A stretch of 64,000 nt of DNA from Candidatus Nomurabacteria bacterium (GCA_943348815.1 CALQYT010000001.1:12488-76487), one strand, 5' to 3'; positions 6,711-49,917 are shown, counted from the stretch's first letter. Numbers and translations are program-made. Notes: generated by a model not told the origin, from the letters alone.

Positions 6711-6711
6711 T

Positions 6712-7083: not shown

Positions 7084-7087
7084 TTCT

Positions 7088-19661: not shown

Positions 19662-20131
19662 ATAACCTCAATATACCGCTCTTGTTCGCCCGCGCCATCT
19701 GCGGAAAAAGAGAGGTTGAGGTCAGCCTTGGGCAGCGCCGAACCAAGCCGCTCGGGCCATTCGACAACCACTAAGTTAGATGGGTCGTCTAAAAATTCTG
19801 CAGGTTTGAGTGCCGCAAACTCTTTTGGATTTTCTAAGCGGTAGGCGTCGATGTGCACGAGATTTTTAAAGCGCCGTTTTTGCCCCATGGGGTTGAGCCC
19901 GTCCGGCAACGCGTACTTTTTCATCAGTACATAGGTGGGGCTTTGTACTACCTCGCGTACACCCATTTGTCGTGCCAGCTGTTGTACAAACGTGGTCTTC
20001 CCCGCACCCAACTCGCCGCGCAGCCCAAGCACCACCGCCTTGGTATTATGGCGATCCATTGCCAGCATCGCGGTTACATTACGGACAAACTCGGGCAACT
20101 CAATCAAAGGCACTTTCTGCATGCCGTACAA
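19658..20131 (-). CDS. tsaE: tRNA threonylcarbamoyladenosine biosynthesis protein TsaE
   Basis: LGLRGELGAGKTTFVQ...SPTYVL...HIDAYRL are TsaE/YjeE motifs. Confidence 0.8.
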   Translation of the reverse strand: MYGMQKVPLIELPEFVRNVTAMLAMDRHNTKAVVLGLRGELGAGKTTFVQQLARQMGVREVVQSPTYVLMKKYALPDGLNPMGQKRRFKNLVHIDAYRLENPKEFAALKPAEFLDDPSNLVVVEWPERLGSALPKADLNLSFSADGAGEQERYIEVI

Positions 20132-20139
20132 TATACCTC

Positions 20140-32681: not shown

Positions 32682-32802
32682 AACTACTCTTATATAAGAC
32701 TATTACTACTATGAGGGCTGTGGATTGGGGAAAAGGTTATTTTATCTTTATTTTGCATACTGGTTTCGGGAAGGTGTTATACACACTACTGTGGGTAAGA
32801 AT
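32682..32802. promoter_or_regulatory. candidate oriC segment (dnaA-dnaN intergenic): AT-rich tract with DnaA-box-like 9-mers
   Basis: TGTGGATTG at 32719..32727, TTATACACA at 32777..32785, and TGTGGGTAA at 32790..32798 each differ by one base from TTATCCACA/TGTGGATAA. An AT-rich tract ttattttatctttattttg lies between them. Confidence 0.4.
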
Positions 32803-34140
32803 TTATTTCAACATCAGTCGGATCTGGTGTAGCTCGTTATTCAACAGGCTATCCACACGAAGATCATTCTTTATTTTGTCGCAGGAGTGGATAACGGTGG
32901 TGTGGTCGCGCCCCCCCAGTTTTTCACCAATAGTGGGGAAGGAAATCCGAAAATCTTCACGCAACAAAAACATAATCACCTGCCGCGGACGCACCACTTC
33001 TTTGCGGCGGGTTTTTTCGTAGATACTCCCCTCCTCTACGCCATAAAAGTTAGCGATCGTTTTAACCACCTCTTGGATAGAGACTGCTTTCTTAGTGGTC
33101 CCTGCACCACGCAGGAGCGTCTTGGCGTCGTTAATAGTGAGTGGTTGACCCCGCATCTCAAACTGGATCATCAATGTGTTGAGTGCCCCTTCCAATTCGC
33201 GTACATTGCCTTCGATAGTTGAGGCGAGGTACTCGAGCACTTCGTCGGCAAGAATAAAATTATGCGCTGAAGCTTTGGTGCGTATGATGGCGAGTCTTGA
33301 TTGATGATCAGGTGGGGTGACCGACACAATCATCCCCGCACTAAAACGACTTTTAAGACGGTCTTCGAGATTTTGGATGACGTTGGGGTGTTGATCGGAA
33401 GAAAATATCAACTGTTTGTTGCTGTCGTGCAGATAATTAAATAGGTGGAAGAATTCTTCTTTAATTTTGTCGCGCCCGGCCAAAAACTGCACGTCGTCCA
33501 TAATGAGCAGGTCATACTGGCGGTATTTTTCTTTAAAACTCTGGACCTTCCCCGCTTGCAGCGACGAGACATAATCCATCGAAAATTTTTCTGAAGTGAC
33601 ATAAAACACTTTGCGGTCCGGCGCGCTCATACGAAAGTGGTTGCCGATGGCCTGAATGAGATGCGTTTTGCCCAAACCAGTAGGACCGTAAACCAAGAGT
33701 GGGTTGTAGGCCACACCCGGTTTGCGCACTACCGCTTGTGCAGCCGCGTGAGCGAGCTCGTTAAAGGGTCCCACTACAAACGAACTAAAGGTAAACCGAG
33801 GGTTGAGGTTGCTTTTTTGGTGGACGGCCTCAAGCGGAAGTTCGGTTGGCGGGGGCGGCACCTGGCGCGCCTCGTCAGAAGAGCGTTTGGGGCCGCGCGA
33901 GATTACATATTCGACCGTTCGTACACTATCGGAGAGCATACGGAGCGAGCGGAGTATGTCTTTGTGGAACTTAGTAGAAAGCCAGTCGCGGGCAAACTGT
34001 GAGGGGACTCCCAAGTAGACCGTGCCGTCCTCGACCCGCACAATATGAGTGTCTTTAAACCACGTATTGAAGTTGGGTTTGGAGATACTCAGTTCGAGTT
34101 CTACCAGCGCATTTTCCCAAAGTTCTTTCGTGGTTGTCAT
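32803..34140 (-). CDS. dnaA: chromosomal replication initiator DnaA
   Basis: N-terminus ...LWENALVELELSIS..., AAA+ region LLVYGPTGLGKTHL, and C-terminal DNA-binding domain (...FGGRDHTTVIHSCDKI...). Confidence 0.9.
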   Translation of the reverse strand: MTTTKELWENALVELELSISKPNFNTWFKDTHIVRVEDGTVYLGVPSQFARDWLSTKFHKDILRSLRMLSDSVRTVEYVISRGPKRSSDEARQVPPPPTELPLEAVHQKSNLNPRFTFSSFVVGPFNELAHAAAQAVVRKPGVAYNPLLVYGPTGLGKTHLIQAIGNHFRMSAPDRKVFYVTSEKFSMDYVSSLQAGKVQSFKEKYRQYDLLIMDDVQFLAGRDKIKEEFFHLFNYLHDSNKQLIFSSDQHPNVIQNLEDRLKSRFSAGMIVSVTPPDHQSRLAIIRTKASAHNFILADEVLEYLASTIEGNVRELEGALNTLMIQFEMRGQPLTINDAKTLLRGAGTTKKAVSIQEVVKTIANFYGVEEGSIYEKTRRKEVVRPRQVIMFLLREDFRISFPTIGEKLGGRDHTTVIHSCDKIKNDLRVDSLLNNELHQIRLMLK

Positions 34141-35481: not shown

Positions 35482-35964
35482 TTGGTTTATAGTGCGTGCA
35501 TGGACGCCGCACTCCTTAAAAGCCTGGTAACCGAGCTCCTCACCCTTCTTGAGGTAGCCGTAGGTTCGGTGGAGGTTAAGACCGGTCACCGCACGTTGGT
35601 GCAAGTAACCTCTGAGGATTCGGCCCGACTCATTGGCCCTCAAGGAGAGAGCCTGCGCTCGCTCAATACCCTTGCCCGCCGGTTGGTTGAGGCTAAACAC
35701 GGCGAGCAGGCGGCCAACTTTTTAATTGACGTCAACGGCTATCATGAAGCGCAAATGGAAAAGGTACGCGCCCAGGCGCGCATGATGGCACAGCGCGCAC
35801 GGCTTTTTAAACACGATGTCGAGATGAGCCCCATGAGCCCGTACGAACGGTTAGTGGTGCACGAACTATTTTCAGAAGATCCAGAAATTAAGACCGAGTC
35901 GGCAGGCGAAGGAAAGTTCCGCCACATTATACTCAAATACAAAGACGCCGGGTTTGTGAGCTAA
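35482..35964 (+). CDS. jag: Jag/KhpB-like KH + R3H domain RNA-binding protein
   Basis: KH region (...VQVTSEDSARLIGPQGESLRSL...) and R3H region (...MSPYERLVVHELF...) in the canonical rnpA-yidC-jag order. Start may instead be the ATG at 35500. Confidence 0.7.
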   Translation: MVYSACMDAALLKSLVTELLTLLEVAVGSVEVKTGHRTLVQVTSEDSARLIGPQGESLRSLNTLARRLVEAKHGEQAANFLIDVNGYHEAQMEKVRAQARMMAQRARLFKHDVEMSPMSPYERLVVHELFSEDPEIKTESAGEGKFRHIILKYKDAGFVS

Positions 35965-37181
35965 TTAGTTAAGCGGATCGTCCACAGCGAGCGGTCGCCT
36001 TTGCGCACATAGGCCGCATAGTGGTCGTCTGGTGAGAGGGTGAGCGAGGCAAAGTCAGCTTGCTGGCCTCCGTCGGTAGAGCCCGGTACGGCGAGCGCCT
36101 GCCGCGCTCCCGTGGTGAGGTTGTACGAGAGCAGCGCGTCCGAGTAGCTCGCGGTCCCCATACGCCAAAGGTCAGGATAGTTAGGGGGCGCGCTACTATC
36201 GTAGGGCGCTCCGCAGTAGAGTACCGTGCTTGAGGCATTACCAAACGCACACTGCTCGGGCATTGGGGTAAGCACAAGGGGTAGCGCGATGCCGGTTTTA
36301 ATAGTGTAAGAGTACGTGGTACGTGAATCACCGCTCGTTTGGTACACCACATGCGCAAACGCGCGGTCGGCGATCGCGGTTAACCCCGCGCCAAAAAGGA
36401 TCGGGCTTGAAGCGCCGCTTTTGGTGTCGATGGCAAGTGCAATACCCGCGACACCACTTGCGGCTGCACTTTGTACCAACAAAGTTCCTGGTGCTGGCCA
36501 ACCAAGGGCTATCTGCGAGAGTGGGAGTGAAGTAAGTTTTTGTCCTCCCCCATTTGGTTTGGCGATAAAAATATCTGCGCCGCTTTGCGTTTTAACTACA
36601 TAGGCAATGTTGCTGCCGTCAGGTGCGACAGCCAAGCTACTGATGCTATTAGGTAAAAACTGTATGCGTGCAAGCGGCGTAGTAGTGCTGCCGGGTGTAG
36701 GGAGTGAAATATGCGCAGTTTTAACCGTGGTGCCATCGAGATACTGCACCAAAACGCCAGCCCCCCGCTCGCTCCAAAAAGCTTGGGCGATACCGGGCAC
36801 GGTGGTGTTGGAGAGCGCTTTGGGTATTGCGCCCGGCGAGTCAAGGGCCACTTCCATCACGTGGCCGTTCGATTGCAGCACATAGCGCGCCACGGTGGTG
36901 GTTGGGTGGCCGGTTTGCAACAGGACTGCCCCGGCAATAGGACCCTCGGCTATTTTAGTTATTTTTTGTCCAACCGAGTTGGTGTTTTGCACCGGTTGTG
37001 CGGTGTTGGTAGTTTGTTCTTGTGTTGCGGTGGTGGTAGTTTTTGTGCCACTTTCCCCAAAGCCGGTATTGGTTGTGGCAGTGGGTGGGGTCGCGGTTTG
37101 AGAAAATACAAACCACACTAGCAGCAGTGCGGCTACCGCTCCTAAACCGACGATGCTAAGAATTACTTTCCAGTTGTTCAT
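35961..37181 (-). CDS. membrane-anchored/secreted Thr-rich protein (last gene of the T4SS operon)
   Basis: N-terminal TM/signal MNNWKVILSIVGLGAVAALLLVWFVF, then a Thr-rich linker and a ~300-aa beta-rich domain. Confidence 0.45.
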   Translation of the reverse strand: MNNWKVILSIVGLGAVAALLLVWFVFSQTATPPTATTNTGFGESGTKTTTTATQEQTTNTAQPVQNTNSVGQKITKIAEGPIAGAVLLQTGHPTTTVARYVLQSNGHVMEVALDSPGAIPKALSNTTVPGIAQAFWSERGAGVLVQYLDGTTVKTAHISLPTPGSTTTPLARIQFLPNSISSLAVAPDGSNIAYVVKTQSGADIFIAKPNGGGQKLTSLPLSQIALGWPAPGTLLVQSAAASGVAGIALAIDTKSGASSPILFGAGLTAIADRAFAHVVYQTSGDSRTTYSYTIKTGIALPLVLTPMPEQCAFGNASSTVLYCGAPYDSSAPPNYPDLWRMGTASYSDALLSYNLTTGARQALAVPGSTDGGQQADFASLTLSPDDHYAAYVRKGDRSLWTIRLTN

Positions 37182-37183
37182 AG

Positions 37184-37747
37184 TTAGGAGGCGCCTGTGG
37201 GGCAGCCTACGGCGCCTGTGCAGTTTTTGGCCGGAGTAAACGAAGCGTTTATGCTTGCGGCGTCGGGTGCTGTTCCGGCGCCCGGGGTGGGCGTAGCGGC
37301 CGGTGCATTGCCGTTGCGTAAGTTATTGATATCGCTCCCTAGTTTATCTAATTGCAAAAGCTGGGGGTTAATAGTTTCGAGTATGAGCACGGACATCACC
37401 AACAATAGTAACCCCCACATCGCTGCTTTAGCACGCTCTTTGGCTCTAGAAATATCAACACCCGATTCTGAAACCATGTAGCCGATGCCCGCGACAACCA
37501 GCATCACTACGGCAAAGAGCGCGCCAAAGGTGAGTAGTAGCCGGAAGGTGTTGTTGACGAGCGCGCCAAAGTCGGTACCGCTTTGCCCGCATTTTCCAGC
37601 TCCGTCGGGGCACGGCAGCGGCTCGAGTGGTGTATACGTACACTGGCCACTTTTTGGGTCACAAAACGGTGCTGCGTGTGCATGCGGGGCGGCAATCACC
37701 CCAAGAAACAGTATGGTCAGTAGGCTGATTAAAAAGTATTTCTTCAT
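37184..37747 (-). CDS. T4SS pilin-like protein (TrbC/VirB2-like topology: signal peptide + two TM helices)
   Basis: Signal peptide MKKYFLISLLTILFLGVIAAPHAHA, a Cys-rich segment, two TM helices (FRLLLTFGALFAVVMLVVAGIGYMV and AMWGLLLLVMSVLILETI), then a Pro/Ala/Thr tail. Confidence 0.4.
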   Translation of the reverse strand: MKKYFLISLLTILFLGVIAAPHAHAAPFCDPKSGQCTYTPLEPLPCPDGAGKCGQSGTDFGALVNNTFRLLLTFGALFAVVMLVVAGIGYMVSESGVDISRAKERAKAAMWGLLLLVMSVLILETINPQLLQLDKLGSDINNLRNGNAPAATPTPGAGTAPDAASINASFTPAKNCTGAVGCPTGAS

Positions 37748-39402
37748 AGGCCAAAGAGATTAAGTAGCGGTGTGCTCGATTGAGCGCCAAAAACCAACTG
37801 CAATGAGCGCTGCGCGGTTTGTACAAACTGGTCAGGGGTCGAGTTTTGTACCGAAACACCGAGTGTAGCGACTCCTTCCCCCGATCCTGCTTGGCGTAGC
37901 GTCAGCAAGCCCTGCGCGGCATCAGGACCGGTTGTCTGTTGTTGATTTAGTGTCCACACAAACGGAATGGCTCCTTGGTTGCGCGCGGTTGTTGAAAAAA
38001 AGTACGGTTCAGCTTTGACCGTAATTTCTTTACCCACTAACGAGAGGGCCTCAGGAAGTGCGGCGTCATATAGGGTGCCACGCAGGGCATCGTATTGATA
38101 AAACAAAACTTGAGGATTGCTCGTCGGGATCGATATCGCCGCCCTCCCCACCCTGTTATTGCCGTAGTACACTTCTACCCCAACATCCTCGGCCGCTTGG
38201 AGCTGGTCGCCCGCGTAGCTGAAGGTGTTACGCCCAAGGCCCGACTGCTCGGGCACAGCATCACCGTTGCGCGTCCATTGGTATGAGAGTGCTTGGGGGA
38301 GCACGCGCGCACCACCGGAGTAAACCGTGGGGAACGCAACTACTTTGTATAAAGAGCCGGCGCTGTAAAGCGCTTTGCCGGTATAAAACGGTGGTACGGT
38401 AGTGTCTGCCTCCCACAACAAGTTGATGCGCGAGGGCGTGAAGCTAAAGGTTTGGGTAAAAAATCCTTGCGAGGAATCTGTTGAGACTTTGATAGTAGTT
38501 TTTTCTCCCAAGTTGCCGGTGACAAACGTGTAGCGACGCTCGCCAACACCTTCTTTCACCGTCTTACCGTCTTGCGTCCATGCCAGAGTGGCACTGCCCA
38601 AAAAAGAGCCAACACCCTGCACCTCAATAGTGACACTTTCATGCGGTCCGGGCACCTCCGGGTTGACGACGTATTGTATTGGCGGCGGCACCGCCTGCGC
38701 GTGCGCGGTGAGTCCTAAGCAAAGTAAGAGTGCCAGCGCCGCGCCCTTCATAGCGGGTTTGATGTCAGCAAAGCGGTTCGACAATAGAGGGGTGCGCGGA
38801 GAATTTTTTTGTTTTTCTTCCTCCTCTGGTGTTTGTTGTCCAGTTTGTGGTCGCCCTCGATTTATATTGGCCGCTTGTACTCCCACGTTGGCAACTTTTT
38901 GTACCAAATCGCCACCAGGCAAGAGTCCCAGCGCAGTACTGAGCAGCGTGCTGCCCTGCTTTAGCCCACCTTGCTCATGGCGCTTGATGCAGCGGCGCAC
39001 CATAATAGTCCATGCTGGTACAAAGCTACTCAAAATAGGAATCACTTTAAATACCGAACTACGGAAGAAAAGATCGGGATAAAACATACCACCCCACGCA
39101 AGACCCAGCACCAACACACTGCCAAAGGTAATGCCGATGAAATAGCCTACCGCAGCTCCTAGTGGCACCGCAAAGGCGCTTGCGGCCGCTCCCATAACTC
39201 CTCCGGCAACGGCACACGCAGCTCCGTTAGTAATTCCTTCCACAATACCTCCTGAGAGGGTCCAACAAATATATCCGCCCCCTAACGCTCCTGCCGCGCC
39301 GCTGCCATAGGGTGTAGCCCACTGGAGTGCAAGGAAAATAAAAAAGAAAATAAATTGCAGGGTGTCGGTGATCAATGCCAGACCGATCAAAAACCACTTC
39401 AT
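37744..39402 (-). CDS. T4SS-operon membrane protein (Gly-rich polytopic N-domain + internal signal-peptide-like segment + ~300-aa extracytoplasmic domain)
   Basis: 552 aa. The N-terminal 150 aa hold Gly-zipper TM helices. At ~aa 225, MKGAALALLLCLGLTAHAQA looks like a cleavable signal peptide. ATGA overlap with virB4. Confidence 0.5.
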   Translation of the reverse strand: MKWFLIGLALITDTLQFIFFFIFLALQWATPYGSGAAGALGGGYICWTLSGGIVEGITNGAACAVAGGVMGAAASAFAVPLGAAVGYFIGITFGSVLVLGLAWGGMFYPDLFFRSSVFKVIPILSSFVPAWTIMVRRCIKRHEQGGLKQGSTLLSTALGLLPGGDLVQKVANVGVQAANINRGRPQTGQQTPEEEEKQKNSPRTPLLSNRFADIKPAMKGAALALLLCLGLTAHAQAVPPPIQYVVNPEVPGPHESVTIEVQGVGSFLGSATLAWTQDGKTVKEGVGERRYTFVTGNLGEKTTIKVSTDSSQGFFTQTFSFTPSRINLLWEADTTVPPFYTGKALYSAGSLYKVVAFPTVYSGGARVLPQALSYQWTRNGDAVPEQSGLGRNTFSYAGDQLQAAEDVGVEVYYGNNRVGRAAISIPTSNPQVLFYQYDALRGTLYDAALPEALSLVGKEITVKAEPYFFSTTARNQGAIPFVWTLNQQQTTGPDAAQGLLTLRQAGSGEGVATLGVSVQNSTPDQFVQTAQRSLQLVFGAQSSTPLLNLFGL

Positions 39403-41207
39403 AGTCCTGCCTCAGCCTTTTTTTGCCGCAGGGCCAAGACCTGCGATGGGTCAGACGTAATAATTTGATCTTCGGTATAGGACGCAATTACCTTGATAGC
39501 CACGTGCTTCATGCCGGCAAAAAAGATTCCCTCTCCCACGTCGCTCTCGAGTAATAGATATTTTTCTTCATCCGAAAGATTAAACGTTTTTTGCAGATTG
39601 TCGATCGTGGTTGGCGATTGTTTAAGCAATATCTGGATCGATGAGTTGGTGATCATCGGCAGGCCGTAGGGCGACTTTAGAAAGTCGTCCACGTCTTGGG
39701 TAATCGTGGCGAGGCCGAGATAATATTTGCGTCCACGTTTTGCCATCGAGTACAAAAAGCTCGCCGTGTCGTCGGACTTCATCATCCACCAGGCCTCGTC
39801 GATAACGAGGAGGCGTTTTTTCAGATTTTTGCGCACCGCATTCCAGATGTAGTGGGTAATCAGGTACATGGCGACGGGTTTGAGGTCATCCTCCATGTCG
39901 CGTACCGAAAACACCACAAACTTTTTGTTGATATCGACATTGGTCGGCTGGTTGATAAAGCCAGCCCAGGTGCCTTTAGTATATTTGCTCAGGCGTTGTA
40001 CCAATGACTCCGAGCCCTGCATGCCGGCGAGTACTAACTCAAAGTCGCTTAAGAGCGGCGGCTCTGTCTCCGCAAAGTTGGAGTCGACGGTAATATCCTT
40101 AAGCGCGTATGTTTCGCTAATCGCTTTGTCGATGATGGCGTCTTCTTCGGGCGTGAGGCCACCGAGCATAATCCGGAACATTCCTACGAGGGCGACGATA
40201 TTTGAACGCAAAATATCAGCCGGCGACTCGTCCTCGCGCGGCGGCGGTAAATCAAAGGGGTTGATGTGGTTTTCGGAGTTAAGGGAGATATTGAAGTAGC
40301 GTCCCCCTACCGTTTGGGCCAAAAATTCGTATTCGCGCTCGGGGTCTATCACGACCACCTCGGTATCAAACATCAGCGTACGCAAAATCTCGAGTTTGGT
40401 GGCGTAGCTTTTGCCCGAGCCCGATTTGGCAAAAATAACCGAGTTGTAGTTCTCTAACGAAAAGCGATCAAAGAGTACGAGCGATGCGTTGTGGCGGTTG
40501 ACGCCGTACAGTATGCCTTTGTCGGAGGTGAGGTCAAACGATACAAAGGGAAATATTGAAGAGAGCGGCGAAGAATTGAGCTTGGAGTTGACGTTGAGTT
40601 CGTCGTGCCCAAGCGGCATCACTGATTTAAAACCTTGTTCTTGTTGAAAGAGCGCAGGCTTAACATACACCAAGCGTGACTCGAGCATCGACTTTATTTC
40701 GCTCTCCGCTTTGTCTAACTCTTCCACCGACTCGCCATAGATAGTGATGTAGACGCCAACGTCAAAAAGTTTTTCTTGCGCCTGCTGCAGCTGATCACGT
40801 AAGGTTTCGAGGTCTTGATACGCGGTGTCCAAGACCGGGTCGCGCACGAGGCCCTTTTCCTCCCTCGTCATAATTTGTGACTGTACCTCGGCGACTTTCT
40901 TTTGAAACTTTTTGAGTATATCGGCCGAGTCTATTGGGTGGATAAAGATTGATATGTCGAGCACCCGGTCGAGGTTAATGATAGGCGAAAACCACGAGTC
41001 AGAAAGCACGCGCGGGTACGACATTACAAAGAAAGTGCGCGCAATTTTGTCGCCTAGGTTTATTTCGCGCGGCGTAATTTTAAGGGCCGAAGGTGCGATA
41101 ACATCTTGCAGTTCGAGTACCCCCTGTTTGTAAATAGCCTCGGGGAGTATCGGGGCAATCGGTGCCTCGGCTGTCTTTTTTTTGTTTAAAAAATCAAGTA
41201 ATGCCAT
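39399..41207 (-). CDS. virB4: VirB4/TrbE-family T4SS ATPase (Gram-positive TcpF/PrgJ-like, 602 aa)
   Basis: Walker A IFAKSGSGKSYATK, Walker B LLVIDEAWWMM, and the motif ...GLATITQDVDDF.... Confidence 0.85.
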   Translation of the reverse strand: MALLDFLNKKKTAEAPIAPILPEAIYKQGVLELQDVIAPSALKITPREINLGDKIARTFFVMSYPRVLSDSWFSPIINLDRVLDISIFIHPIDSADILKKFQKKVAEVQSQIMTREEKGLVRDPVLDTAYQDLETLRDQLQQAQEKLFDVGVYITIYGESVEELDKAESEIKSMLESRLVYVKPALFQQEQGFKSVMPLGHDELNVNSKLNSSPLSSIFPFVSFDLTSDKGILYGVNRHNASLVLFDRFSLENYNSVIFAKSGSGKSYATKLEILRTLMFDTEVVVIDPEREYEFLAQTVGGRYFNISLNSENHINPFDLPPPREDESPADILRSNIVALVGMFRIMLGGLTPEEDAIIDKAISETYALKDITVDSNFAETEPPLLSDFELVLAGMQGSESLVQRLSKYTKGTWAGFINQPTNVDINKKFVVFSVRDMEDDLKPVAMYLITHYIWNAVRKNLKKRLLVIDEAWWMMKSDDTASFLYSMAKRGRKYYLGLATITQDVDDFLKSPYGLPMITNSSIQILLKQSPTTIDNLQKTFNLSDEEKYLLLESDVGEGIFFAGMKHVAIKVIASYTEDQIITSDPSQVLALRQKKAEAGL

Positions 41208-41213
41208 AGGTTT

Positions 41214-41873
41214 TTAGCGTTGGGCGAGCTCTCCTACCTGCAGCGGCTTCTCCAACTCGCCGGGGTTAAAGAGTTTGTAGAATAATTCTATAACCTCTTC
41301 GGTACCGAGCTTGACCACCCGCACGCCGGTGCGCACCAAACCTTGCTCTATCACCGACATGCGCTGCTCAAGCTGGGTACGGTACTGCTCGAACACCTCG
41401 TCCGAAAGCGAAGTTTTTGCCGAGCTACTCCCCGGCAGCAAACTCCCCAGTATCCCCCCGCTGCGGTTAACGAGCGCCGGGTCGTAGGGTACGACGATAA
41501 AAAAGTTTTTGGTCATGATGTTGGCGCGCTCGGTAAAGTCTTTGATAAACGCAACATACTCGCGGATCTGGATCTTCATAAGATCATCGAGCTCAACTTG
41601 CAGGCGCTCTTGCAAGAGTGCGATGTAGGGGCGGATATCGAGTTCGCGACTTTCGACAAAAAACTGCGTGGTAAATTCGAGTGAGTTAAGAAAATTTTGG
41701 AACTGTCCCATGACCGCCTGTTGCTCGTCTTGTGATTTGAGCGCCAAGTTGATAGACGATGCCATCAAAAGTACCCGCAGCGAGCCGTCCTTAAGTATCA
41801 CTACCCCATCGCGTACTTCTTTGAGAGGTACGAAATCCTGGGTTGCTTGGGCTTTTACTTTAGTGTCGGCCAT
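41214..41873 (-). CDS. T4SS-associated protein resembling the VirB4 N-terminal (CagE/TrbE/VirB) domain
   Basis: ...DFVPLKEVRDGVVILKDGSLRVLLMASSINLALKSQDEQQAV... resembles the N-terminal region of VirB4 proteins. It ends 6 bp before virB4. Confidence 0.4.
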   Translation of the reverse strand: MADTKVKAQATQDFVPLKEVRDGVVILKDGSLRVLLMASSINLALKSQDEQQAVMGQFQNFLNSLEFTTQFFVESRELDIRPYIALLQERLQVELDDLMKIQIREYVAFIKDFTERANIMTKNFFIVVPYDPALVNRSGGILGSLLPGSSSAKTSLSDEVFEQYRTQLEQRMSVIEQGLVRTGVRVVKLGTEEVIELFYKLFNPGELEKPLQVGELAQR

Positions 41874-41876
41874 ACA

Positions 41877-42320
41877 TTAGATTGCGAAGTTTTCGTTTTT
41901 TGTGGTTCCGTTTTCGCGGTCTTTAATATTGAGCGACCACGACAAGTCTTTGAGTTTGCTTTGGGATAGTTTGGGTACGGGGAGCGCTTCGGGCTTGACC
42001 CCTGCCGGTTGTGTCGAGGAGGCTGCGTGTTGCTGCTGTTGCCAAAGGTAGAGTTTGCTGCCAAAAAAGTAATTAAAAGCGTGTTCCACCGCGTGTATGA
42101 GCGGCCGGCCGTTGACTTTAAAAAATGCCAACCCTATCGCAAAGGCGATGACGGGGATCGAGAAGACAACCGTAAGGTAGAGCGGCAGGAAGGTAAACAG
42201 CACTAAGCACATCCCGCCGGCGCCGCCGAGATAGACAAATTGTTTTAGCGTTAGGGGGCCAAAGATTTTGTCTTCGACCTCGATAAATTGAGGTACTTGA
42301 TACTGAGCCATCAGTATCAA
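41877..42320 (-). CDS. VirB3/PrgI-like small membrane protein
   Basis: 147 aa with two TM helices (...LGGAGGMCLVLFTFLPLYLTVVFSIPVIAFAIGLAFF...), positioned just upstream of the VirB4-related genes. Confidence 0.5.
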   Translation of the reverse strand: MILMAQYQVPQFIEVEDKIFGPLTLKQFVYLGGAGGMCLVLFTFLPLYLTVVFSIPVIAFAIGLAFFKVNGRPLIHAVEHAFNYFFGSKLYLWQQQQHAASSTQPAGVKPEALPVPKLSQSKLKDLSWSLNIKDRENGTTKNENFAI

Positions 42321-42335
42321 TTATACCGCCATTTT

Positions 42336-42956
42336 TTAATTGGTTGGCTCGCGATACGGATCTGCTTTGTACGGTTGAGGTTTAGCAGGCGTTGTGTCCT
42401 GGGGAGCCTTCGGCGGAGCCGGAGGTGGTGCCACACTTACGGTTTTTTGGGTGAGCATCATATCCGTCGGATGTATATCCGGAGCTTTGGCGGGTAGCGG
42501 TGCTGCTGGCATAACGGGTGCCGGTACACTTGGCGCGGCAGGTGCCGGTGGTGTTGGAGAGACAGGAGTTGTGGTCACGGGTGCCACGGTTTTGGGCGCT
42601 TTGGCTTCTTCTGCCAGTGTTTCCCGGAGGGCACGTTCTTCCGTAAACTCTTGCATTGACTGCCGTATCGGTACAAACAGCGCCTCACTAAGCTCACGCG
42701 CGATAGCCTCGGCTTTGTCTTGAGGTACCTTTACCTGTTTAGCGATAGTACCAGCAAACTCTGTAGGTTCGGTAAAGCCCAGCATAACCAGGTAGGTCTC
42801 GTCGCTCAGACTGCCAATCTGGTCTATATGGAGTGCATTCTTGACGCCGATTTCTTGTATTTTTTTATCCGCATCGGCAGAGGTAATTGCCCGCTGAACG
42901 TCTTGCGGTAGTTCTTCAAACCGTGCTTGAATTTTTTGTCGTACGTTTTGGTCCAT
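42336..42956 (-). CDS. hypothetical protein with Pro-rich C-terminal half
   Basis: Globular N-terminal region of ~110 aa followed by ...TPVSPTPPAPAAPSVPAPVMPAAPLPAKAP.... Confidence 0.4.
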   Translation of the reverse strand: MDQNVRQKIQARFEELPQDVQRAITSADADKKIQEIGVKNALHIDQIGSLSDETYLVMLGFTEPTEFAGTIAKQVKVPQDKAEAIARELSEALFVPIRQSMQEFTEERALRETLAEEAKAPKTVAPVTTTPVSPTPPAPAAPSVPAPVMPAAPLPAKAPDIHPTDMMLTQKTVSVAPPPAPPKAPQDTTPAKPQPYKADPYREPTN

Positions 42957-42975
42957 AGATTTATTCTAGTAAGGA

Positions 42976-45237
42976 TTAATGCTCCGTATCGTCCCGGTGT
43001 ACATCATCTTCCTCCCCTTCTTCTCTGGGTGGTGTTGCTGGTGCGCGGCTTCCCCTGTCAGGTCGTGCGGGAGTTTCATACCCATCTGCTACCTTTTCTC
43101 CCTTACTGCCCAACATATTTTTTACCCGGTCGGCATCCTTGTCGCTGCCGCGTATTTGGGCTATAGCTTCTTGGTCTGCTACTGCAGTATATTTCCAAAA
43201 TGGGAAATAAGGGTGTGAAGCGAGACTCCACACGTTACGCCAATCGTGGGTTTCTAACGATTTTGCGTACGTCTTTGCGTTGTCGCCGCCCACTGCTTTT
43301 TTGGCGTCGACTATGGCAGTTTTTAGATCTTTTACTTTACCATCGGCACCCGTAACGGTAAGATTTTTAACCACTTGATTGTATTCATCCCGCGCGTCGT
43401 TCACCTCTTTTTGGCTCGCGAGGTTGTTCTTTCGGTCTTCTATTTTTTGCGAGTAGGTGCCCGCCGCATTCATCAATCGCTGTCGCTGGTCTTTGTCTAG
43501 TTTTGAAAGCACCCCTCCCAGAGAATCGGAGAGCTGCCGGTCGGTCGGTTTGAGTGCCTTAGATTCTTTCTCGCGCCATTCGGTACGTTTTTGCTCTCTT
43601 GCGAGGAACCCGCCCTCGCCTTTGGCATCACCCACCTCAAGGCCCAACTTGCTCGCTCCTGTTTTAAGGAGGCCAACACCGCGTGCATCAAAACTGGCTT
43701 TTCCCAATGCTCCTGCCGCACGCCAGGCGTTTCTGCGCAATAACCCTCCCTCGGCAGCCCAGTTACGCATTCTAGTACTTTGGGCGGCTCGCAGTGCTCC
43801 ATATCCAATGGTGGTGCGAGCCACCGCGCCAACCGCTCCCAGTGATTTCCCACTGGCCCAGCCCGCAGCTCCCAGTGATTTGCTCTTAGCCCAACCCATA
43901 GCCTTGCTTGCCTCTGCGCTTCCCTCTTTGACGATCCATTCCGACACATTAAGTCCGATATATATAAGCGCTACGATAAAGCCCATCTTAATTGAGACCG
44001 TAGCTATAGCTGCCAAAAAGCCGATGGAGCTGGCACCCGGGCTCCCCGGAGTGGCGTTGATAATCTCTCCAAAAATTCCGCCTGCGCCGTTGCCAGTCGT
44101 ATTAGCTGCAAAGATGGTGCTCACAATTTGAGTGAGCAAATAAAACATAAACAAGAAAATTGCCGGATAGAATGAAAATTCGATCAAATACTTGAGCCAT
44201 TTATCAAAAAAGTGTGCTGTTTTTTCGTTCGTCTTTGCAACAAACGCTAGGGGTGAGGATATAAGGACAAACCACAGCCCCACGATCCGGAGCATAAATT
44301 TAATACCCACCTGCAGGAAGCTAAAGAACAAAAGCCAAAAGATAACCGCTATCGCCAGATAGGCTACGGTAAGTACCGCAAGGCCTCCGATCTCGGCTGC
44401 CCATCCGCCTTGAGTGCCCACCGCCGTTTTAACCGCATCAAATTGTTGTTGATTAAGCAGGCTTTGGGTGCCGAGCCCATTCATAATTGCAAAACTCAAA
44501 TCTTTTGCTCCTCCTACCATGGCCGGAGTACCGTTAGAGTACTGACCTAAAGGAATTGCGTTATAAAATTGCACCGCTAAGATATTCCCCGCATCTATTG
44601 CCACGCGCGTAAAGAAGAAACTAAAGTTTACTAACAGCGCTATTACCACGACCGTCGCAAGCGTTTTGATAGTGCCCGCGGTTTCGGCTTGGAGCATTAT
44701 GGTGAGCGCCAGATAAATGAGGATAAAAATAAACGCCATGTTGGCTAAGTCGCGCACTAATTCCCAACCCGTGGAAAGAAAGTTGAGTGCGTAGGCGGTA
44801 CTGTTGAGCGAAAGTTGTATGACGATGCTAAAGAAGGCGGCACCTATATAAGCGATTTGGCTTGCAAGCGCAGGGCCAACATAATAAACAATGAGTGCCA
44901 TACAGTTGGCGAGGCTGCTGCACGTAATTTGTGAGGTAACACTACTCCCGGGGCGAGGTATCACCTGGCCGGTGGTTTGGCTTGTTACATTTCCGGTAAC
45001 AGGGCTTGCTATCAGGTCTGGGTTCTTGGTGGTTACAGTGCCTCCGAGTGTTGCAGAAACGCAGGCGTTATTGTCGGCTTGAGTAATAGTATGGCCGTCG
45101 ATGACGGTACCTACACTAGGACAGGCCGACGGCGCCGCCTGGGCTTTCTTTACTCCAACGGGGGTTGTCCCTATGGCTAGGGCTACCAATAGCACGAAGG
45201 CCCCCCCAAGAATTATTTTTAGAATTTTATTGCGCAT
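42976..45237 (-). CDS. VirB6/TrbL-like polytopic T4SS channel protein (TcpH-like, 753 aa)
   Basis: Signal peptide, ~100-aa extracytoplasmic domain, at least 6 TM helices, and a long Lys/Ala/Gly-rich hydrophilic C-terminal domain. Confidence 0.6.
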   Translation of the reverse strand: MRNKILKIILGGAFVLLVALAIGTTPVGVKKAQAAPSACPSVGTVIDGHTITQADNNACVSATLGGTVTTKNPDLIASPVTGNVTSQTTGQVIPRPGSSVTSQITCSSLANCMALIVYYVGPALASQIAYIGAAFFSIVIQLSLNSTAYALNFLSTGWELVRDLANMAFIFILIYLALTIMLQAETAGTIKTLATVVVIALLVNFSFFFTRVAIDAGNILAVQFYNAIPLGQYSNGTPAMVGGAKDLSFAIMNGLGTQSLLNQQQFDAVKTAVGTQGGWAAEIGGLAVLTVAYLAIAVIFWLLFFSFLQVGIKFMLRIVGLWFVLISSPLAFVAKTNEKTAHFFDKWLKYLIEFSFYPAIFLFMFYLLTQIVSTIFAANTTGNGAGGIFGEIINATPGSPGASSIGFLAAIATVSIKMGFIVALIYIGLNVSEWIVKEGSAEASKAMGWAKSKSLGAAGWASGKSLGAVGAVARTTIGYGALRAAQSTRMRNWAAEGGLLRRNAWRAAGALGKASFDARGVGLLKTGASKLGLEVGDAKGEGGFLAREQKRTEWREKESKALKPTDRQLSDSLGGVLSKLDKDQRQRLMNAAGTYSQKIEDRKNNLASQKEVNDARDEYNQVVKNLTVTGADGKVKDLKTAIVDAKKAVGGDNAKTYAKSLETHDWRNVWSLASHPYFPFWKYTAVADQEAIAQIRGSDKDADRVKNMLGSKGEKVADGYETPARPDRGSRAPATPPREEGEEDDVHRDDTEH

Positions 45238-47065
45238 AGCAGGCGGCGAGTTGACCTTGAGTTATCGAGTTGCGACCGGAGAGATTGCTTTGCAGCGTCG
45301 TGCGGTCTTGGGTGGCGGTGGTAACATCCGCATCGGTGATAAACGCACCCGCCGCCTGCGCTTGTTGGAAAGAGCTCGTGACCGCCGCCACATCTGCCGG
45401 CGAGGCCACGCTGATAGTGCGCGTCTGCAGGTCTTGCAGGAGTGCAATCGTTTGGTTGGCACGGGTGATGTAGTTGTTGTACATAGCAATCATCACCTGA
45501 TAGTTGTTTATTATTTCTTGGGTGCTCGATGCGTGCTGACTGTCGCCTTTGCTATCGTAACAGTTAAACAAGTCCTGCAATTTTTGTTGCGTGCTCTGGA
45601 TGTCGCTGATGCTCGCCTGCTCGACACTGCCAAACTGCTGTGCGGTCTGCACCAAATTTTGGAGCTTGGTAAGTAATGTCTGCGCATCGGCCTGTGCCTG
45701 TTGCTCGGCGGGGGTCAGATAGCTCGACGCGTACCCGTTTTGGCCCGAGAGGCTCGAGAGTCCTTGGTAGAGCGTGCGGGTTACGAGCTGGTTGAGGAGC
45801 GCGTTGATTATTTCGTCAAAACTTTTAGCCAACTGGTTGGCCAAGAAAGGTTGTTTGAGGGTTTCTTTGAGCGATGACTCCACCAAGGCGCTTGGGGTTG
45901 AGACTTTGCAATTAGTCGAGCCGGGTGGGTCGCATTTTTTGACCGAAATAAATCCGCCAGGGCTGAGGTTGCGGTTAGCATCGGTGAGCGCATTTTGTTG
46001 TGCGGTCGCGAGCCCTACCTGCGCGTAGGCGTAGGCGCCAAACGGGTTGTTGGTTGGCATAGTGGTAAATTGCAGCAGTCCCGGCCATCCACCTTGAGAA
46101 AAGTTGCCGTTCATAAAACCGGTCAGGTTTTTGACAATACCCGTGAGGGAGCAGGAGCCGGCGTTACGCTGCGCATAACTTTGCGCGATGGCAATGCGAA
46201 TTTGATTTTTGAATGGTGAGCAGAGGAACGAGAGCGCCGTGCCCTTGATAAACTCGCCTGCGGCTTGGTCGCCTACGTTGGTAAAGAATTGCTGAAAGTT
46301 TTGTACAAACGACGGTTTACCATTGAAGCCCGAGTTGATCCAGTTGACGATGCTGTTGGTCATCTGTTGGATCACCGCTTTAGCAATAGTGCGCGCCAAG
46401 CAGTCGCTGACATCTTTAAATTGATTTTGCGAGCGCTGTTTGTACGCATTAAAGTCGTAGGTGAGCACAAACCCGCCCGCTAGTGACGCCGCGCCGCGCG
46501 CGCTCGCGTCGGCATTCGCCGGTGCTTCGCTGGTGGCAAAGAGTACTGCGCAGCCTGCCGCCGCGCCAAAGAGCCCGCCCAACCCAAGCCCCAAACCATT
46601 GTTGGAACCTTGATCGCTAAAACCGGTGCCGACAATATAAGGAGTGCCGTCCACACCGCCATCTAACTGGTTAATACCCGAGGGGACAAAACTCGTGGTC
46701 GGTCTACCGGTCCCTCCGTTACCACCGCTCGCGCTCCCGTCCCCGCCTAGCCAATCTACCCCTGGTGCGCCCGCAATACCCTGGGCCGGAGCAACCCCAC
46801 CCCCCGTGCTGTTGGCATAGGGGTTAACCGCCACTCCTACGTTAGTCGCCCCCGTGGTGCCGCCGCCCACGCCGGTTATGTTAGTAGCAACATTCCCCGT
46901 CGTGCCCGCACCGCTCGTCCCTCCCTGCCTATCTTGCCCGGTGCCAAAACTCCCGGCAGGTGCTTGTGTGTTACTCTTGCCGCTAAAAAACCAAAACCAC
47001 AAAAAACCAATCAGGAGCGCAAAGGCTACCGCGGCGAGAATTATAAGGATAACGCGTTTGGTCAT
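45227..47065 (-). CDS. large membrane-anchored Gly/Thr-rich secreted protein (T4SS operon)
   Basis: N-terminal TM MTKRVILIILAAVAFALLIGFLWFWFF, a Gly/Thr low-complexity region, and a C-terminal Gln-rich coiled-coil region. 612 aa. Confidence 0.45.
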   Translation of the reverse strand: MTKRVILIILAAVAFALLIGFLWFWFFSGKSNTQAPAGSFGTGQDRQGGTSGAGTTGNVATNITGVGGGTTGATNVGVAVNPYANSTGGGVAPAQGIAGAPGVDWLGGDGSASGGNGGTGRPTTSFVPSGINQLDGGVDGTPYIVGTGFSDQGSNNGLGLGLGGLFGAAAGCAVLFATSEAPANADASARGAASLAGGFVLTYDFNAYKQRSQNQFKDVSDCLARTIAKAVIQQMTNSIVNWINSGFNGKPSFVQNFQQFFTNVGDQAAGEFIKGTALSFLCSPFKNQIRIAIAQSYAQRNAGSCSLTGIVKNLTGFMNGNFSQGGWPGLLQFTTMPTNNPFGAYAYAQVGLATAQQNALTDANRNLSPGGFISVKKCDPPGSTNCKVSTPSALVESSLKETLKQPFLANQLAKSFDEIINALLNQLVTRTLYQGLSSLSGQNGYASSYLTPAEQQAQADAQTLLTKLQNLVQTAQQFGSVEQASISDIQSTQQKLQDLFNCYDSKGDSQHASSTQEIINNYQVMIAMYNNYITRANQTIALLQDLQTRTISVASPADVAAVTSSFQQAQAAGAFITDADVTTATQDRTTLQSNLSGRNSITQGQLAACYAQ

Positions 47066-47958
47066 TGGATAGGGGTAGACACAAAAACAGTCCAGGCTGC
47101 GCCCGGTTCGCTGTTAGTAAAAAGTATACCGTTCTTGCCAAACTGTTCGGCGATAGATGTGAACACACGCGCAACTTCGCCCAGCAGGAGTTGATACTGC
47201 TGCAGCGCTTGTAGTCCGCGCAGCGGATCCTCAAACAATTTTTGCATATCTCCTACTGAGTTGGCCGCCGCTGCAAGGTCGTTGAGTGCTTGTACGTGCA
47301 GCGGTGCAAGCGTTTTGGGCACGCGGAGTTTGGTTAAGTCAGCAACCAATGCTTGGTACTCGTGTTGGACGTGCGCCAATGCTTGCAGTTGCGCGGGGCT
47401 GTCGCTGTCGGTCGCGTTGCTCATCGCGAGCAAAACATTTCTCGAAGTCGCGTCTTGGTGATTGCCTAAGGCAACCATCACCGCATTGCCGTAGTCGTGG
47501 CGCGTCTGTGTTGAGTCTTCAACTAACGTTACGTCGCTCTGGGTGTACGTTTTGGGCGTGCCGGCAACGCCGACGTTTTGGCTCACACTGGCAATAATGC
47601 TCTCTTGGGTTGGGATATCGCTCCCCATCCCCTGAGCGCTCGCGTCGCTTAAGTTTACAAACAGCGAGCGGGCGACGGTGTCGGTAAGATTGTTGCTCTT
47701 AGCGGCATTTAATAAGTTGGCGACCGCGTTTTCATCTGGTGCAGGCGGCAAACCGGGCGAGTCGGCCTGGATCTGGTCCAACTGTGCGCGCCAGTCTTCC
47801 TGTGCTTGTGCGGCCACTGCCGCGTCGTTGGTTGCAACGGTCGCCGGTGCGTGCGGGGTGGTTAAGTACTGCGATCCGACAATAAGTCCTGCTGCGGCGG
47901 CGATTGAGCCGGCGATACTTAAAAAATGCGTACTCGGTAAGTAAGCCGGGAGCCTCAT
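47062..47958 (-). CDS. membrane-anchored hypothetical protein (first gene of the T4SS operon; possibly VirB8-like)
   Basis: N-terminal TM (FLSIAGSIAAAAGLIVG) and a 270-aa extracytoplasmic domain. ATGA overlap with the next gene. Confidence 0.4.
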   Translation of the reverse strand: MRLPAYLPSTHFLSIAGSIAAAAGLIVGSQYLTTPHAPATVATNDAAVAAQAQEDWRAQLDQIQADSPGLPPAPDENAVANLLNAAKSNNLTDTVARSLFVNLSDASAQGMGSDIPTQESIIASVSQNVGVAGTPKTYTQSDVTLVEDSTQTRHDYGNAVMVALGNHQDATSRNVLLAMSNATDSDSPAQLQALAHVQHEYQALVADLTKLRVPKTLAPLHVQALNDLAAAANSVGDMQKLFEDPLRGLQALQQYQLLLGEVARVFTSIAEQFGKNGILFTNSEPGAAWTVFVSTPIQ

Positions 47959-47979: not shown

Positions 47980-48339
47980 ATGTACGCATTCAGACGGTTA
48001 CTACTGGTGGTTTTTATAGCGGGGAGCCTGTTAGTACCCTTTTTTGCCTCAGCCTACGGCATTTCGTTCGGCGGCCGAGTTGTTGATATGAATTTTTGTG
48101 TAAATGGAGCTATACAGTTTACGGTTTTGCCCGCGGGCAAGTTTCCTATAACCTATCTCTGGACTCCTTTGGTTAGACACAACTACCTGTCCCCCACCCC
48201 CACTAAGCCACCGGTGTTTGGCGAGCAAATATTAGGGTTTGCACTGCCGGCCCCCACTTTTTGTCTTGGTCCGGGCAAGTATCCTCACCAATACTTTGGC
48301 TTGCCGGTACAGTACGAGCGCTCAAGTTACGATATTTAG
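47980..48339 (+). CDS. secreted hypothetical protein
   Basis: Signal peptide MYAFRRLLLVVFIAGSLLVPFFASAYG. Divergent from the T4SS operon. Confidence 0.4.
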   Translation: MYAFRRLLLVVFIAGSLLVPFFASAYGISFGGRVVDMNFCVNGAIQFTVLPAGKFPITYLWTPLVRHNYLSPTPTKPPVFGEQILGFALPAPTFCLGPGKYPHQYFGLPVQYERSSYDI

Positions 48340-49058
48340 GAGCGACTTAGCTCAAGCCACTCTCCTAGCGAGACATCTTCGGCACGAGCGGTGCTGAGTG
48401 CGCCAATGTCACCGAGGGTGTTTCTAAGCAACTTTCTTTTTTGAGAAAATCCTTTTTTAACTAATTCGAAAAACTTTTCTTCGTGCTTTTTGTTTTTAAA
48501 ATTGGTGCGCGAAATATTTTCTATAAGCAAAATAGCCGAGTCTACTTTCGGTGGTGGCGAAAAAGCTCCGGCCGGAACCGTCTTTATGTATTTTGGATTT
48601 CCATACGCTTTTACCGAAAGAGAGAGGATACTTTCTTTTTTTGAACGCGCGATGCGTTGCGCGACCTCTTTTTGCACCAAAAATACTAACCGCGATGGCT
48701 GGTGTTCTGTTGTTAAGAATTTTTTAAACAGTGCTCCAGAAATGTAGTACGGAATATTACCCACGACTTTGTAATCTTTTAAGGCATAGTTTGATATATC
48801 AAACTCTAGTGCATCGCCCTCAATCACTTCTAAATCTTTTCCCGAAAACTTTTTGCGCAACCCTTCAATCAAGCGCGAATCTTTTTCGAGCGCAATAACG
48901 TTTGCACCGCGTTCAAGTAACTTCTCGGTTAACGCTCCCTCCCCTGGGCCAATTTCTAATACCGTCTCCCCTTCTTTGATATCAGCAGCATCAGCCACCG
49001 TATTCAAATAAAACGGGTTGTGCAAAAAGTGTTGCCCAAGTGATTTCTTTTTATACAT
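48336..49058 (-). CDS. rsmA: 16S rRNA (adenine1518/1519-N6)-dimethyltransferase KsgA/RsmA
   Basis: MYKKKSLGQHFLHNPFYLNTVADAADIKEGETVLEIGPGEGALT is a KsgA signature. The ATG start is approximate because the hand translation and the ORF track disagree by one base. Confidence 0.8.
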   Translation of the reverse strand: MYKKKSLGQHFLHNPFYLNTVADAADIKEGETVLEIGPGEGALTEKLLERGANVIALEKDSRLIEGLRKKFSGKDLEVIEGDALEFDISNYALKDYKVVGNIPYYISGALFKKFLTTEHQPSRLVFLVQKEVAQRIARSKKESILSLSVKAYGNPKYIKTVPAGAFSPPPKVDSAILLIENISRTNFKNKKHEEKFFELVKKGFSQKRKLLRNTLGDIGALSTARAEDVSLGEWLELSRS

Positions 49059-49917
49059 GGGCAAGTTGTTGAAGAGAAAACTGGCTACAGTACAGCTCCC
49101 CGAATTCAAGCGGGATTACGGGCAGGTTGATGTTTCTTGTTTCTAAAAAAGTGCGCACACCCTCGACCTGTTCTTGCGGCACTTCCACATGAGTAAATCG
49201 TTCAAAAGGAACTCCGCCTAAGGTGCGTGCTTCTAGGCGCTGCAAAAATGGCATGACCCCTTTCCCCTCCACTGCCTCTTTCTTTACCCCAAACAATATT
49301 GAATGGTTCCCCTCGATGTCGGAGCGCAGATCGTAAGCGCGCCAAACAGGAATGACTTTATGCTTTTCCAAATTACAAACCGCACTCATCCATGTGCGCA
49401 TATGTTTGAAAAAATGTGGGCTCAGTACCGTTTGTCGCATAAAGCTCCATTGTCCGGGCTTCAGTTGAGTAAACAGTTCCTTGAAGGCCACCATAAAAAA
49501 GAAGGACATCCAAAAACGAGTGCCCCCGAAAACATATTTCAACCACACTCCTTCCCGTAGATGTATATGTGCGTATAATCTTGCGTTCATGCGTGACGGC
49601 GCTAACGAAACTGTTTTGCCGACCCCCGCCCACAGATCCTGGTGGGCAATAAGTCCTCCACTTTCAGCAATTGAGTTCAAAATATCAACAATCCTTTCAT
49701 TGTCTGTTAGTCCGAAGAAGCGCGAATTGCCGGAGTGGACATAATGATAACGCCCTGTACCGTGCCAATAGGTCGCTTTGTCGTAGCAGCGCTCTATGGT
49801 TGGGAGATACGCTTCATACTCATGCGCTAACTCCTTTTTAACGCTTTCAGCATCTCGCCTGTACCGAGCCAGATGCTTTTCGCTTCGAGACAATATGAAA
49901 GTTCCGATAATACCCAT
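49051..49917 (-). CDS. hypothetical protein
   Basis: 288-aa ORF with no recognisable motif. Confidence 0.45.
   Translation of the reverse strand: MGIIGTFILSRSEKHLARYRRDAESVKKELAHEYEAYLPTIERCYDKATYWHGTGRYHYVHSGNSRFFGLTDNERIVDILNSIAESGGLIAHQDLWAGVGKTVSLAPSRMNARLYAHIHLREGVWLKYVFGGTRFWMSFFFMVAFKELFTQLKPGQWSFMRQTVLSPHFFKHMRTWMSAVCNLEKHKVIPVWRAYDLRSDIEGNHSILFGVKKEAVEGKGVMPFLQRLEARTLGGVPFERFTHVEVPQEQVEGVRTFLETRNINLPVIPLEFGELYCSQFSLQQLAHV

Follow-up and report, generated by a model that had tools for sequence, protein, structure and literature searches.

The 64,000-nt window of Candidatus Nomurabacteria bacterium DNA analysed here (GCA_943348815.1 CALQYT010000001.1:12488-76487; positions are window coordinates throughout) contains a type IV secretion system (T4SS) operon formed by ten co-directional genes, g1–g10, which run on the minus strand from 47958 down to 35961 (Table 1). 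An open reading frame (ORF) scan recovers all ten where an earlier note on this DNA had placed them, with junctions as short as it described: the ORFs overlap by 4 or 11 bp and are otherwise separated by gaps of 2–19 bp. The ten ORFs are real genes. A scan of one genome per species gave 80 related loci (L001–L080), nearly all of which match the ten proteins by tblastn, with gaps mainly at contig ends or in diverged proteins.

The operon is bordered by dnaN, dnaA, rpmH, rnpA, yidC and jag on one side and, at its opposite end, by ksgA and uvrD, in agreement with its earlier placement between jag and ksgA; the distance from its 3' end to the dnaA start codon measures 1.8 kb, and replaces the figure of about 1 kb from the dnaA/dnaN origin given at that time. 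The stop codons of g10 (minus strand) and the convergent jag (plus strand) share 4 bp (35961–35964), leaving no intergenic space for a terminator between the two convergent units. A scan for regulatory sites returned fewer promoter-like sequences than shuffled DNA and terminator-like sequences at chance level, and the operon boundaries were therefore not drawn from it. The GC content of the operon is that of its surroundings, and Rfam identifies five tRNAs only, none of them close to the operon.

Table 1. Coordinates of the operon genes, followed by neighbouring and more distant features of the window
Feature	Position	Strand	Length	Remark
g1	47062-47958	-	298 aa	First gene of operon
g2	45227-47065	-	612 aa	
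g3, VirB6/TrbL	42976-45237	-	753 aa	
g4	42336-42956	-	206 aa	
g5, PrgI/VirB3	41877-42320	-	147 aa	
g6, TrsD-like	41214-41873	-	219 aa	
g7, VirB4 ATPase	39399-41207	-	602 aa	
g8	37744-39402	-	552 aa	
g9, VirB2-type pilin	37184-37747	-	187 aa	
g10	35961-37181	-	406 aa	Last gene of operon
ORF with signal-like N-terminus	47980-48339	+	119 aa	In the g1-ksgA gap, divergent from g1
ORF between ksgA and uvrD	49051-49917	-	288 aa	
LysM-LysM-Peptidase_M23 cell-wall hydrolase	52048-53160	+		Pfam Peptidase_M23 3.4e-31, LysM 1.1e-22
DnaA-box-like cluster	32777-32894		118 bp	Probable oriC
PilB-type T2SSE ATPase	19972-21822	+		MshEN domain
Low-GC block	6001-8245			
Large serine recombinase	4542-6104	-		Resolvase, Recombinase and Zn_ribbon_recom domains
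tRNA-Ser(tga)	4523-4610	+		
tRNA-Arg(tct) segment and its partial copy	1531-1566 and 1649-1684		36 nt (copy)	

Core secretion components

Profile comparisons identify g7 as a VirB4 ATPase of the Gram-positive (MPF-FATA, CD1110) type, the predicted motor of the system. It matches the NCBIfam model conju_CD1110 (VirB4-like conjugal transfer ATPase, CD1110 family) at 3e-117 (392.8 bits, cut-off 325) as well as Pfam P-loop_TraG (1e-26) and AAA_10, and finds 4ag5 (VirB4 C-terminal domain, 2.4e-41) and TrwK (9e-10) in the PDB. The Walker A (AKSGSGKS) and Walker B (LLVIDE) motifs that the earlier note had read in this protein were located at residues 260 and 466, respectively.

Directly upstream of virB4, g6 matches parts of three NCBIfam models, VirB4_plasma (positions 99–233 of 894, 6.9e-9), TrsD (positions 13–144 of 201, 9.8e-9) and conju_CD1110 (positions 2–116 of 752, 2.4e-4); its matches to TrsD and to the VirB4 N-terminus are homology-level, under the curated cut-offs. 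Since g7 spans positions 185–734 of the same CD1110 model, the two proteins cover successive parts of it and together behave as a split VirB4. Their relation is seen through profile models only, BLASTP revealing no similarity between g6 and g7. On these profile matches g6 is a TrsD-like protein, the predicted counterpart of the N-terminal segment of full-length VirB4, here encoded separately, and its identity among relatives is 55–86%.

Two further core components are membrane proteins. g5 is a PrgI/VirB3-type small inner-membrane protein (Pfam PrgI PF12666, 1.3e-9, 38.9 bits, cut-off 27), with two transmembrane (TM)-like segments within residues 29–67, and is the membrane anchor for VirB4. 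g3 is an extended VirB6/TrbL-type polytopic membrane protein (Pfam TrbL PF04610, 1.4e-7, 32.0 bits, cut-off 25.9), in which approximately 7–8 TM segments lie between a signal-like N-terminus and a C-terminal hydrophilic domain of approximately 320 aa; a search of PDB sequences gave no match for it. The remaining core protein, g9, matches Pfam T4SS_pilin under the cut-off when searched alone (4.9e-4, 20.6 bits, cut-off 26.6), and 33 of its 36 positional orthologues match the same family (best 2.2e-11), with five matching TrbC/VirB2. These family matches assign g9 as a VirB2-type T4SS pilin, and its predicted topology comprises a signal peptide, hydrophobic helices at 70–88 and 108–126 and a Pro/Ala/Thr-rich tail. 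The searches with each operon protein, proposed as a check in the earlier note, thus passed the cut-offs for TrbL, PrgI and VirB4 CD1110, and all five labels offered there (VirB6/TrbL, PrgI/VirB3, VirB4-N-domain-like, VirB4 and pilin) are upheld by profile.

Lineage-specific envelope proteins

The other five proteins of the operon, g1, g2, g4, g8 and g10, are lineage-specific envelope proteins, none of which has a PHROGs match with E < 0.03. g1 is formed by a weakly hydrophobic N-terminal membrane helix, a linker and an extracytoplasmic domain (residues ~140–295), which AlphaFold models confidently as an all-alpha bundle of four helices. VirB8 was weighed as an identity for g1, following the earlier label of 'possibly VirB8-like', and rejected, the predicted bundle being distinct from the NTF2-like fold. 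Pfam gives no VirB8 or TcpC match at E ≤ 1 in any of the ten operon proteins, among which the folds of the g2 central domain and of g4 are unsettled.

In g2, a membrane anchor at the N-terminus is followed by a low-complexity linker rich in Gly, a conserved central domain that contains Cys (~220–440) and a C-terminal long-helix bundle (~450–612), the one part that AlphaFold models with confidence. The composition of g2 (11.8% Gly, 8.7% Thr) agrees with the Gly/Thr-rich character noted earlier. A Foldseek search returned no match at E ≤ 1e-3, comparison of the g2 profile with PDB sequences returned coiled-coil noise only, and the score against NCBIfam MPN385 (20.8 bits) is far under the cut-off of 120. 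Three g2 homologues contain a peptidoglycan-binding domain, and g2, a surface protein, may be associated with the cell wall. g4, by comparison, has no TM-like segment and is presumably cytoplasmic. An N-terminal domain of approximately 120 aa leads into a Pro/Ala-rich tail (14.6% Pro overall, as expected of a protein earlier described as Pro-rich), and family searches (Pfam, NCBIfam, PHROGs) gave no match. g4 is matched in 48 related loci and occupies the same operon slot wherever gene order was mapped.

g8 is modular, with a Gly-rich multi-TM module (residues 1 to ~215), a second signal/anchor helix (~220–238) and three tandem repeats (~245–552) of approximately 100 aa each. The repeats are mutually homologous (hhalign probabilities 96%, 96% and 80%), and a profile of the C-terminal part gives a weak match to the immunoglobulin (Ig)-like domains of T4 Hoc (3shs, 5.3e-4) and to immunoglobulin domains; they are probably surface-exposed. 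The two halves form one ORF only in the window and in its two closest relatives (L001 and L002), and are separate ORFs in L003, L005, L006, L012, L014 and L048; in some distant relatives (for example, L017, L023, L036, L039 and L042), the space between virB4 and the Ig-repeat gene is too small for the TM module. Judged from this distribution, g8 is a recent lineage-specific gene fusion that joined a multi-TM module to three predicted Ig-like repeats. This corrects the earlier description of a 'bipartite membrane protein'.

g10 combines an N-terminal membrane anchor (TM-like 6–24), a Thr-rich linker and an ectodomain that contains two invariant cysteines (C311 and C323); with 12.1% Thr, it deserves the Thr-rich label it had been given. 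A profile of 33 g10 orthologues has a weak match to a TolB beta-propeller (E 0.004), g10 scores 0.027 against Pfam Gmad1 (LpqB propeller), and the ectodomain is a probable beta-propeller.

Inheritance, relatives and role of the system

Gene order was laid out in ten of the 80 related Paceibacteria loci, the rest being judged by gene matches. The order uvrD-ksgA-g1..g10-(jag)-yidC-dnaA-dnaN recurs in 10/10, and most of the 80 match the same genes; repeats flanking the operon are limited to short chance matches, as had been noted. The shared order and flanks in related species indicate that the operon is vertically inherited and is not on a mobile element. This synteny comparison, another check that the earlier note had suggested, supports its label of 'chromosomal' and speaks against an integrative and conjugative element (ICE) or plasmid, as do the lack of flanking repeats and the uniform GC content; the comparative picture is one of a fixed, vertically inherited chromosomal locus and not of an ICE or plasmid remnant. 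Among the best 120 VirB4 matches, all named homologues are Patescibacteria, labelled Paceibacteria, Nomura-, Adler- or Kaiserbacteria (76–100% identity). That close homologues all come from Patescibacteria/Paceibacteria metagenome-assembled genomes fits the reduced-genome epibiont suspected earlier.

Rates of change differ sharply between the parts of this operon. VirB4 identity to the 80 Paceibacteria species is 76–95%, compared with 49–94% for DnaA and 33–81% for DnaN from the same loci, and it exceeds DnaA identity in 52/52 loci and follows it in rank (Spearman 0.75, n=52), a correlation that speaks for vertical inheritance. Median identities in the distant group descend from VirB4 (79%) through TrsD-like g6 (59%), DnaA (56%), PrgI (48%) and DnaN (39%) to g2 (34%), the pilin (34%), g4 (32%), g8 (29%), VirB6 (27%), g10 (26%) and g1 (25%). 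Measured against the two closest relatives, virB4 has the lowest nonsynonymous rate (dN) of the region (0.05) and a synonymous rate (dS) of 1.8–2.3, saturated like that of its neighbours; because its synonymous sites are saturated, the conservation reflects purifying selection and not recent transfer. Saturation even against the closest relatives restricts the comparison to dN ranks, with no dN/dS used. The exposed parts (g1, g2, VirB6, g8, the pilin and g10) have dN of 0.39–0.64, approximately ten times that of VirB4, with g3 (VirB6) the fastest-evolving gene of the operon (0.56–0.64). A constrained cytoplasmic motor combined with fast-changing exposed parts is the pattern expected for a machine in contact with a second organism. 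The 2025 survey of Patescibacteria T4SSs discussed below (PMC12102498) is silent on conservation levels, the words 'conserved' and 'conservation' being absent from its text, and the rate profile, with VirB4 more conserved than DnaA, is a point absent from that survey.

Systems of this kind were reported in Saccharibacteria genomes (PMC7427843). Southlakia epibionticum cannot grow as an epibiont without a homologous cluster, its pilins included, in which neither a coupling protein nor a relaxase is recognisable (Wang 2023, Cell; PMC10633639). A survey of 3,035 Patescibacteria genomes (Quinonero-Coronel 2025, Microb Genom; PMC12102498) traced MPF-FATA ancestry, found TrsD, PrgI, VirB6 and VirB2-like pilins near virB4, with relaxases rare and detectable VirB8 scarce, described the Paceibacteria virB4 neighbourhood as dnaA, dnaN, rnpA, rpmH and ksgA, and concluded phylum-wide that the role is non-conjugative; a 2025 FEMS review counts Patescibacteria T4SSs among the newest members of the superfamily (PMC12857230). 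The window operon shares with this clade its VirB4, TrsD, PrgI/VirB3, VirB6 and VirB2-like pilin, its lack of a nearby relaxase or coupling protein and its genomic neighbourhood: all family-defining features examined are found and nothing essential differs. Peculiar to the window are the fused g8, a single pilin gene in place of an array and the 288-aa ORF between ksgA and uvrD. A relaxase-less chromosomal T4SS at this genomic spot was thus already published between 2023 and 2025, and the window is a further example; because the system is in the literature together with the features that the earlier note stressed, the window does not reveal it.

The S. epibionticum ML1 T4SS (SEML1_0006-0019) has the same core order (VirB4, TrsD-like, PrgI, VirB6-like, pilin) and differs in belonging to the class Saccharimonadia, in its six divergent pilins and two VirB6-like proteins, and in having a gene for an NTF2-like (VirB8-fold) protein and, downstream of virB4, genes for peptidase/lysozyme. 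The window operon, in contrast, has one pilin, no detected NTF2-like or hydrolase gene and other accessory surface proteins. With the conjugative MPF-FATA systems (pCF10 Prg, pIP501/pGO1 Tra/Trs, CTn2 CD1110), it shares VirB4, PrgI/VirB3, VirB6, a TrsD-like protein and a monoderm architecture without outer-membrane core proteins. Unlike them, it lacks a coupling protein, a relaxase and an oriT, a VirB8-like protein of the NTF2 type, a VirB1 hydrolase within the operon (Pfam and NCBIfam detect no VirB1-type peptidoglycan hydrolase domain in the ten proteins) and a PrgB-type adhesin, and it occupies a fixed chromosomal position, whereas theirs is on a plasmid or ICE; conversely, the predicted VirB2-type pilin is a component that Gram-positive conjugative systems do not have. 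The operon descends from Gram-positive (MPF-FATA) conjugation machinery and is now an origin-proximal housekeeping operon.

A Pfam scan covered every ORF of at least 500 aa and nearly all likely genes of at least 240 aa in the window, and no coupling protein or relaxase was found among these larger ORFs; no coupling protein, relaxase or oriT lies near the operon. Within 64 kb, this substantiates the earlier remark that no VirD4 or relaxase was visible. The companion remark on integrases holds near the operon and fails for the window as a whole, whose only recombinase is the large serine recombinase approximately 30 kb away. Ordinary conjugation, for which the coupling-protein and relaxase genes and the oriT would lie at other chromosomal sites, would accord with a VirB4 of a conjugative family, with the inspection having covered 64 kb of the genome and with coupling-protein genes that often lie far from virB4 in a phylum where most genomes have VirD4-like homologues (PMC12102498). 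We nonetheless judge it very improbable: in the related species examined, the operon stays at one chromosomal site among unchanged housekeeping neighbours, there is no recombinase within approximately 30 kb, no flanking repeat and no mobile-element composition, relaxases occur in only 103 of the 3,035 Patescibacteria genomes, and the VirD4-like gene of S. epibionticum is non-essential where its T4SS is essential (PMC12102498).

The operon is a Patescibacteria (candidate phyla radiation, CPR) chromosomal T4SS, in an ultrasmall member of the class Paceibacteria, and we consider it probable that it works as a non-conjugative host-interface machine; its role, a functional inference, is most likely that of a non-conjugative pilus or host-contact machine. 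The non-conjugative co-option suggested in the earlier note agrees with the published conclusion (PMC12102498, PMC10633639). In a mechanism that follows what is established for T4SSs, VirB4 would dock on VirB3 and VirB6, extract pilin from the membrane and polymerise it into a VirB2-type pilus, stalk or channel through the cell wall. The fast-evolving lineage-specific surface proteins would decorate or support this pilus and contact the host cell, and the machine would serve the epibiotic host interface through attachment, possibly also as a macromolecule conduit, and not plasmid or ICE conjugation.

The same absence of coupling protein and relaxase is found in ComB (Helicobacter pylori) and Ptl (Bordetella pertussis), which likewise have non-conjugative roles; these two systems differ in being diderm with VirB7/9/10 core complexes, in having no close sequence relationship to the window operon and in not being growth-essential. 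By analogy with ComB, which it resembles in this absence, or with the archaeal Ced system, the T4SS could be an import machine that would take host DNA or other macromolecules into a cell unable to make nucleotides. Patescibacteria lack nucleotide synthesis, the extreme constraint on VirB4 suits a core nutritional role, and the dispensability of ComEC-dependent DNA uptake in S. epibionticum (PMC10633639, PMC12857230), beside an essential T4SS, leaves room for another route (PMC11665869, PMC12102498). Import is unlikely in our estimate, however, as no DNA-binding, nuclease or ComEC-like component lies in or beside the operon and DNA import has not been demonstrated for any monoderm T4SS. An ATPase of the archaeal Ced DNA-import type was rejected for g7, whose match to the CedB model NF041017 is marginal (37.5 bits, cut-off 700; CedD, 18.7 bits, cut-off 600), whereas the conjugative CD1110 cut-off is passed.

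Traffic in the opposite direction has been proposed for Saccharibacteria (PMC10633639, PMC11665869), where the T4SS would inject the host bacterium with effector proteins that manipulate or permeabilise it, and the fast evolution of the surface components resembles that of host–pathogen interfaces. We give this effector exporter a low probability, since most effector-translocating T4SSs need a coupling protein for substrate recruitment and none is present here, and since the conserved locus has no candidate effector genes, its sole nearby lineage-specific insertion (the 288-aa ORF) having no recognisable domain. A bolder idea is that in Paceibacteria the T4SS has become a core cellular machine under greater constraint than the replication initiator, for example the main route of macromolecule uptake from a host for auxotrophic cells, and that g2 is a VirB5-like tip or platform protein. 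We think this quite unlikely; if true, g2 and the VirB2-type pilin would together form, for a single-membrane bacterium, the first complete pilus module of the VirB2/VirB5 type.

Several points weigh against a non-conjugative host-interface machine, the reading that we prefer. The essentiality data come from Saccharimonadia, another class than Paceibacteria; for Paceibacteria, both the pilus and its function are predicted. The operon has no VirB8-like or VirB1-like protein, which leaves gaps in the list of channel components; the AlphaFold model of g2 is confident for the C-terminal bundle only, its central domain having no usable model, and the Ig-like fold of g8 and the beta-propeller fold of g10 are proposed from weak profile matches. 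VirD4-like homologues occur in 2,918 of the 3,035 Patescibacteria genomes, mostly far from virB4 (PMC12102498), and as the absence of a coupling protein covers 64 kb of this genome, one could be encoded at a distance.

The Patescibacteria T4SS is of wider interest: among T4SSs, it alone is known to be essential to the growth of its own cell, and among those of single-membrane bacteria it alone carries conjugative-type pilins. What this window contributes is modest: gene-by-gene rates, with VirB4 the slowest in the origin region and the exposed parts among the fastest, and fold descriptions of Paceibacteria-specific accessory proteins, including the negative result for VirB8 in g1 and the apparent fusion in g8.

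Neighbouring ORFs and other features of the window

The 119-aa ORF recurs in the same place and orientation in at least six related genomes (L001, L002, L007, L009, L014 and L017; tblastn 8e-16 to 9e-6), and whether it is part of the secretion system is uncertain. The LysM-LysM-Peptidase_M23 cell-wall hydrolase is encoded 4 kb upstream of the operon on the opposite strand, and might take the place of the VirB1-type wall-opening enzyme that the operon lacks; its membership is uncertain, and only 7 of the 80 loci have a homologue no more than 10 kb from virB4. The 2025 survey retrieved VirB1-like proteins with M23 and LysM domains, and its virB4-associated VirB1 homologues are mainly from Paceibacteria (PMC12102498).

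The 288-aa ORF overlaps ksgA, taken from its listed TTG start, by 59 nt and has a counterpart in 0 of the 80 related loci, where uvrD adjoins ksgA. It has no match in Pfam, in PADLOC or, at E < 0.03, in PHROGs, and on this comparison it appears to be an insertion specific to this genome; PADLOC also returned nothing for five further unannotated ORFs elsewhere in the window.

Approximately 3.2 kb from the operon, four DnaA-box-like 9-mers, each with one mismatch to TTATCCACA, are spread over the 3' end of dnaA and the spacer between dnaA and dnaN. The window-wide count of such 9-mers is not above chance (14 observed, 10 expected); the cluster is a probable oriC, as judged from its sequence.

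The 3' end of the serine recombinase overlaps tRNA-Ser(tga), and beside it lies the low-GC block (0.38 versus approximately 0.51), which contains a DUF4440 gene and a 385-aa ORF without annotation. The region yielded no att-like direct repeat, and the recombinase and block together may be a small integrated element. The partial copy of tRNA-Arg(tct), which is 83% identical to part of it and lies at a distance of 118 nt, may represent a degenerate tRNA or the scar of an old attachment site. Finally, the PilB-type ATPase indicates that type IV pilus genes lie approximately 14 kb from the T4SS.

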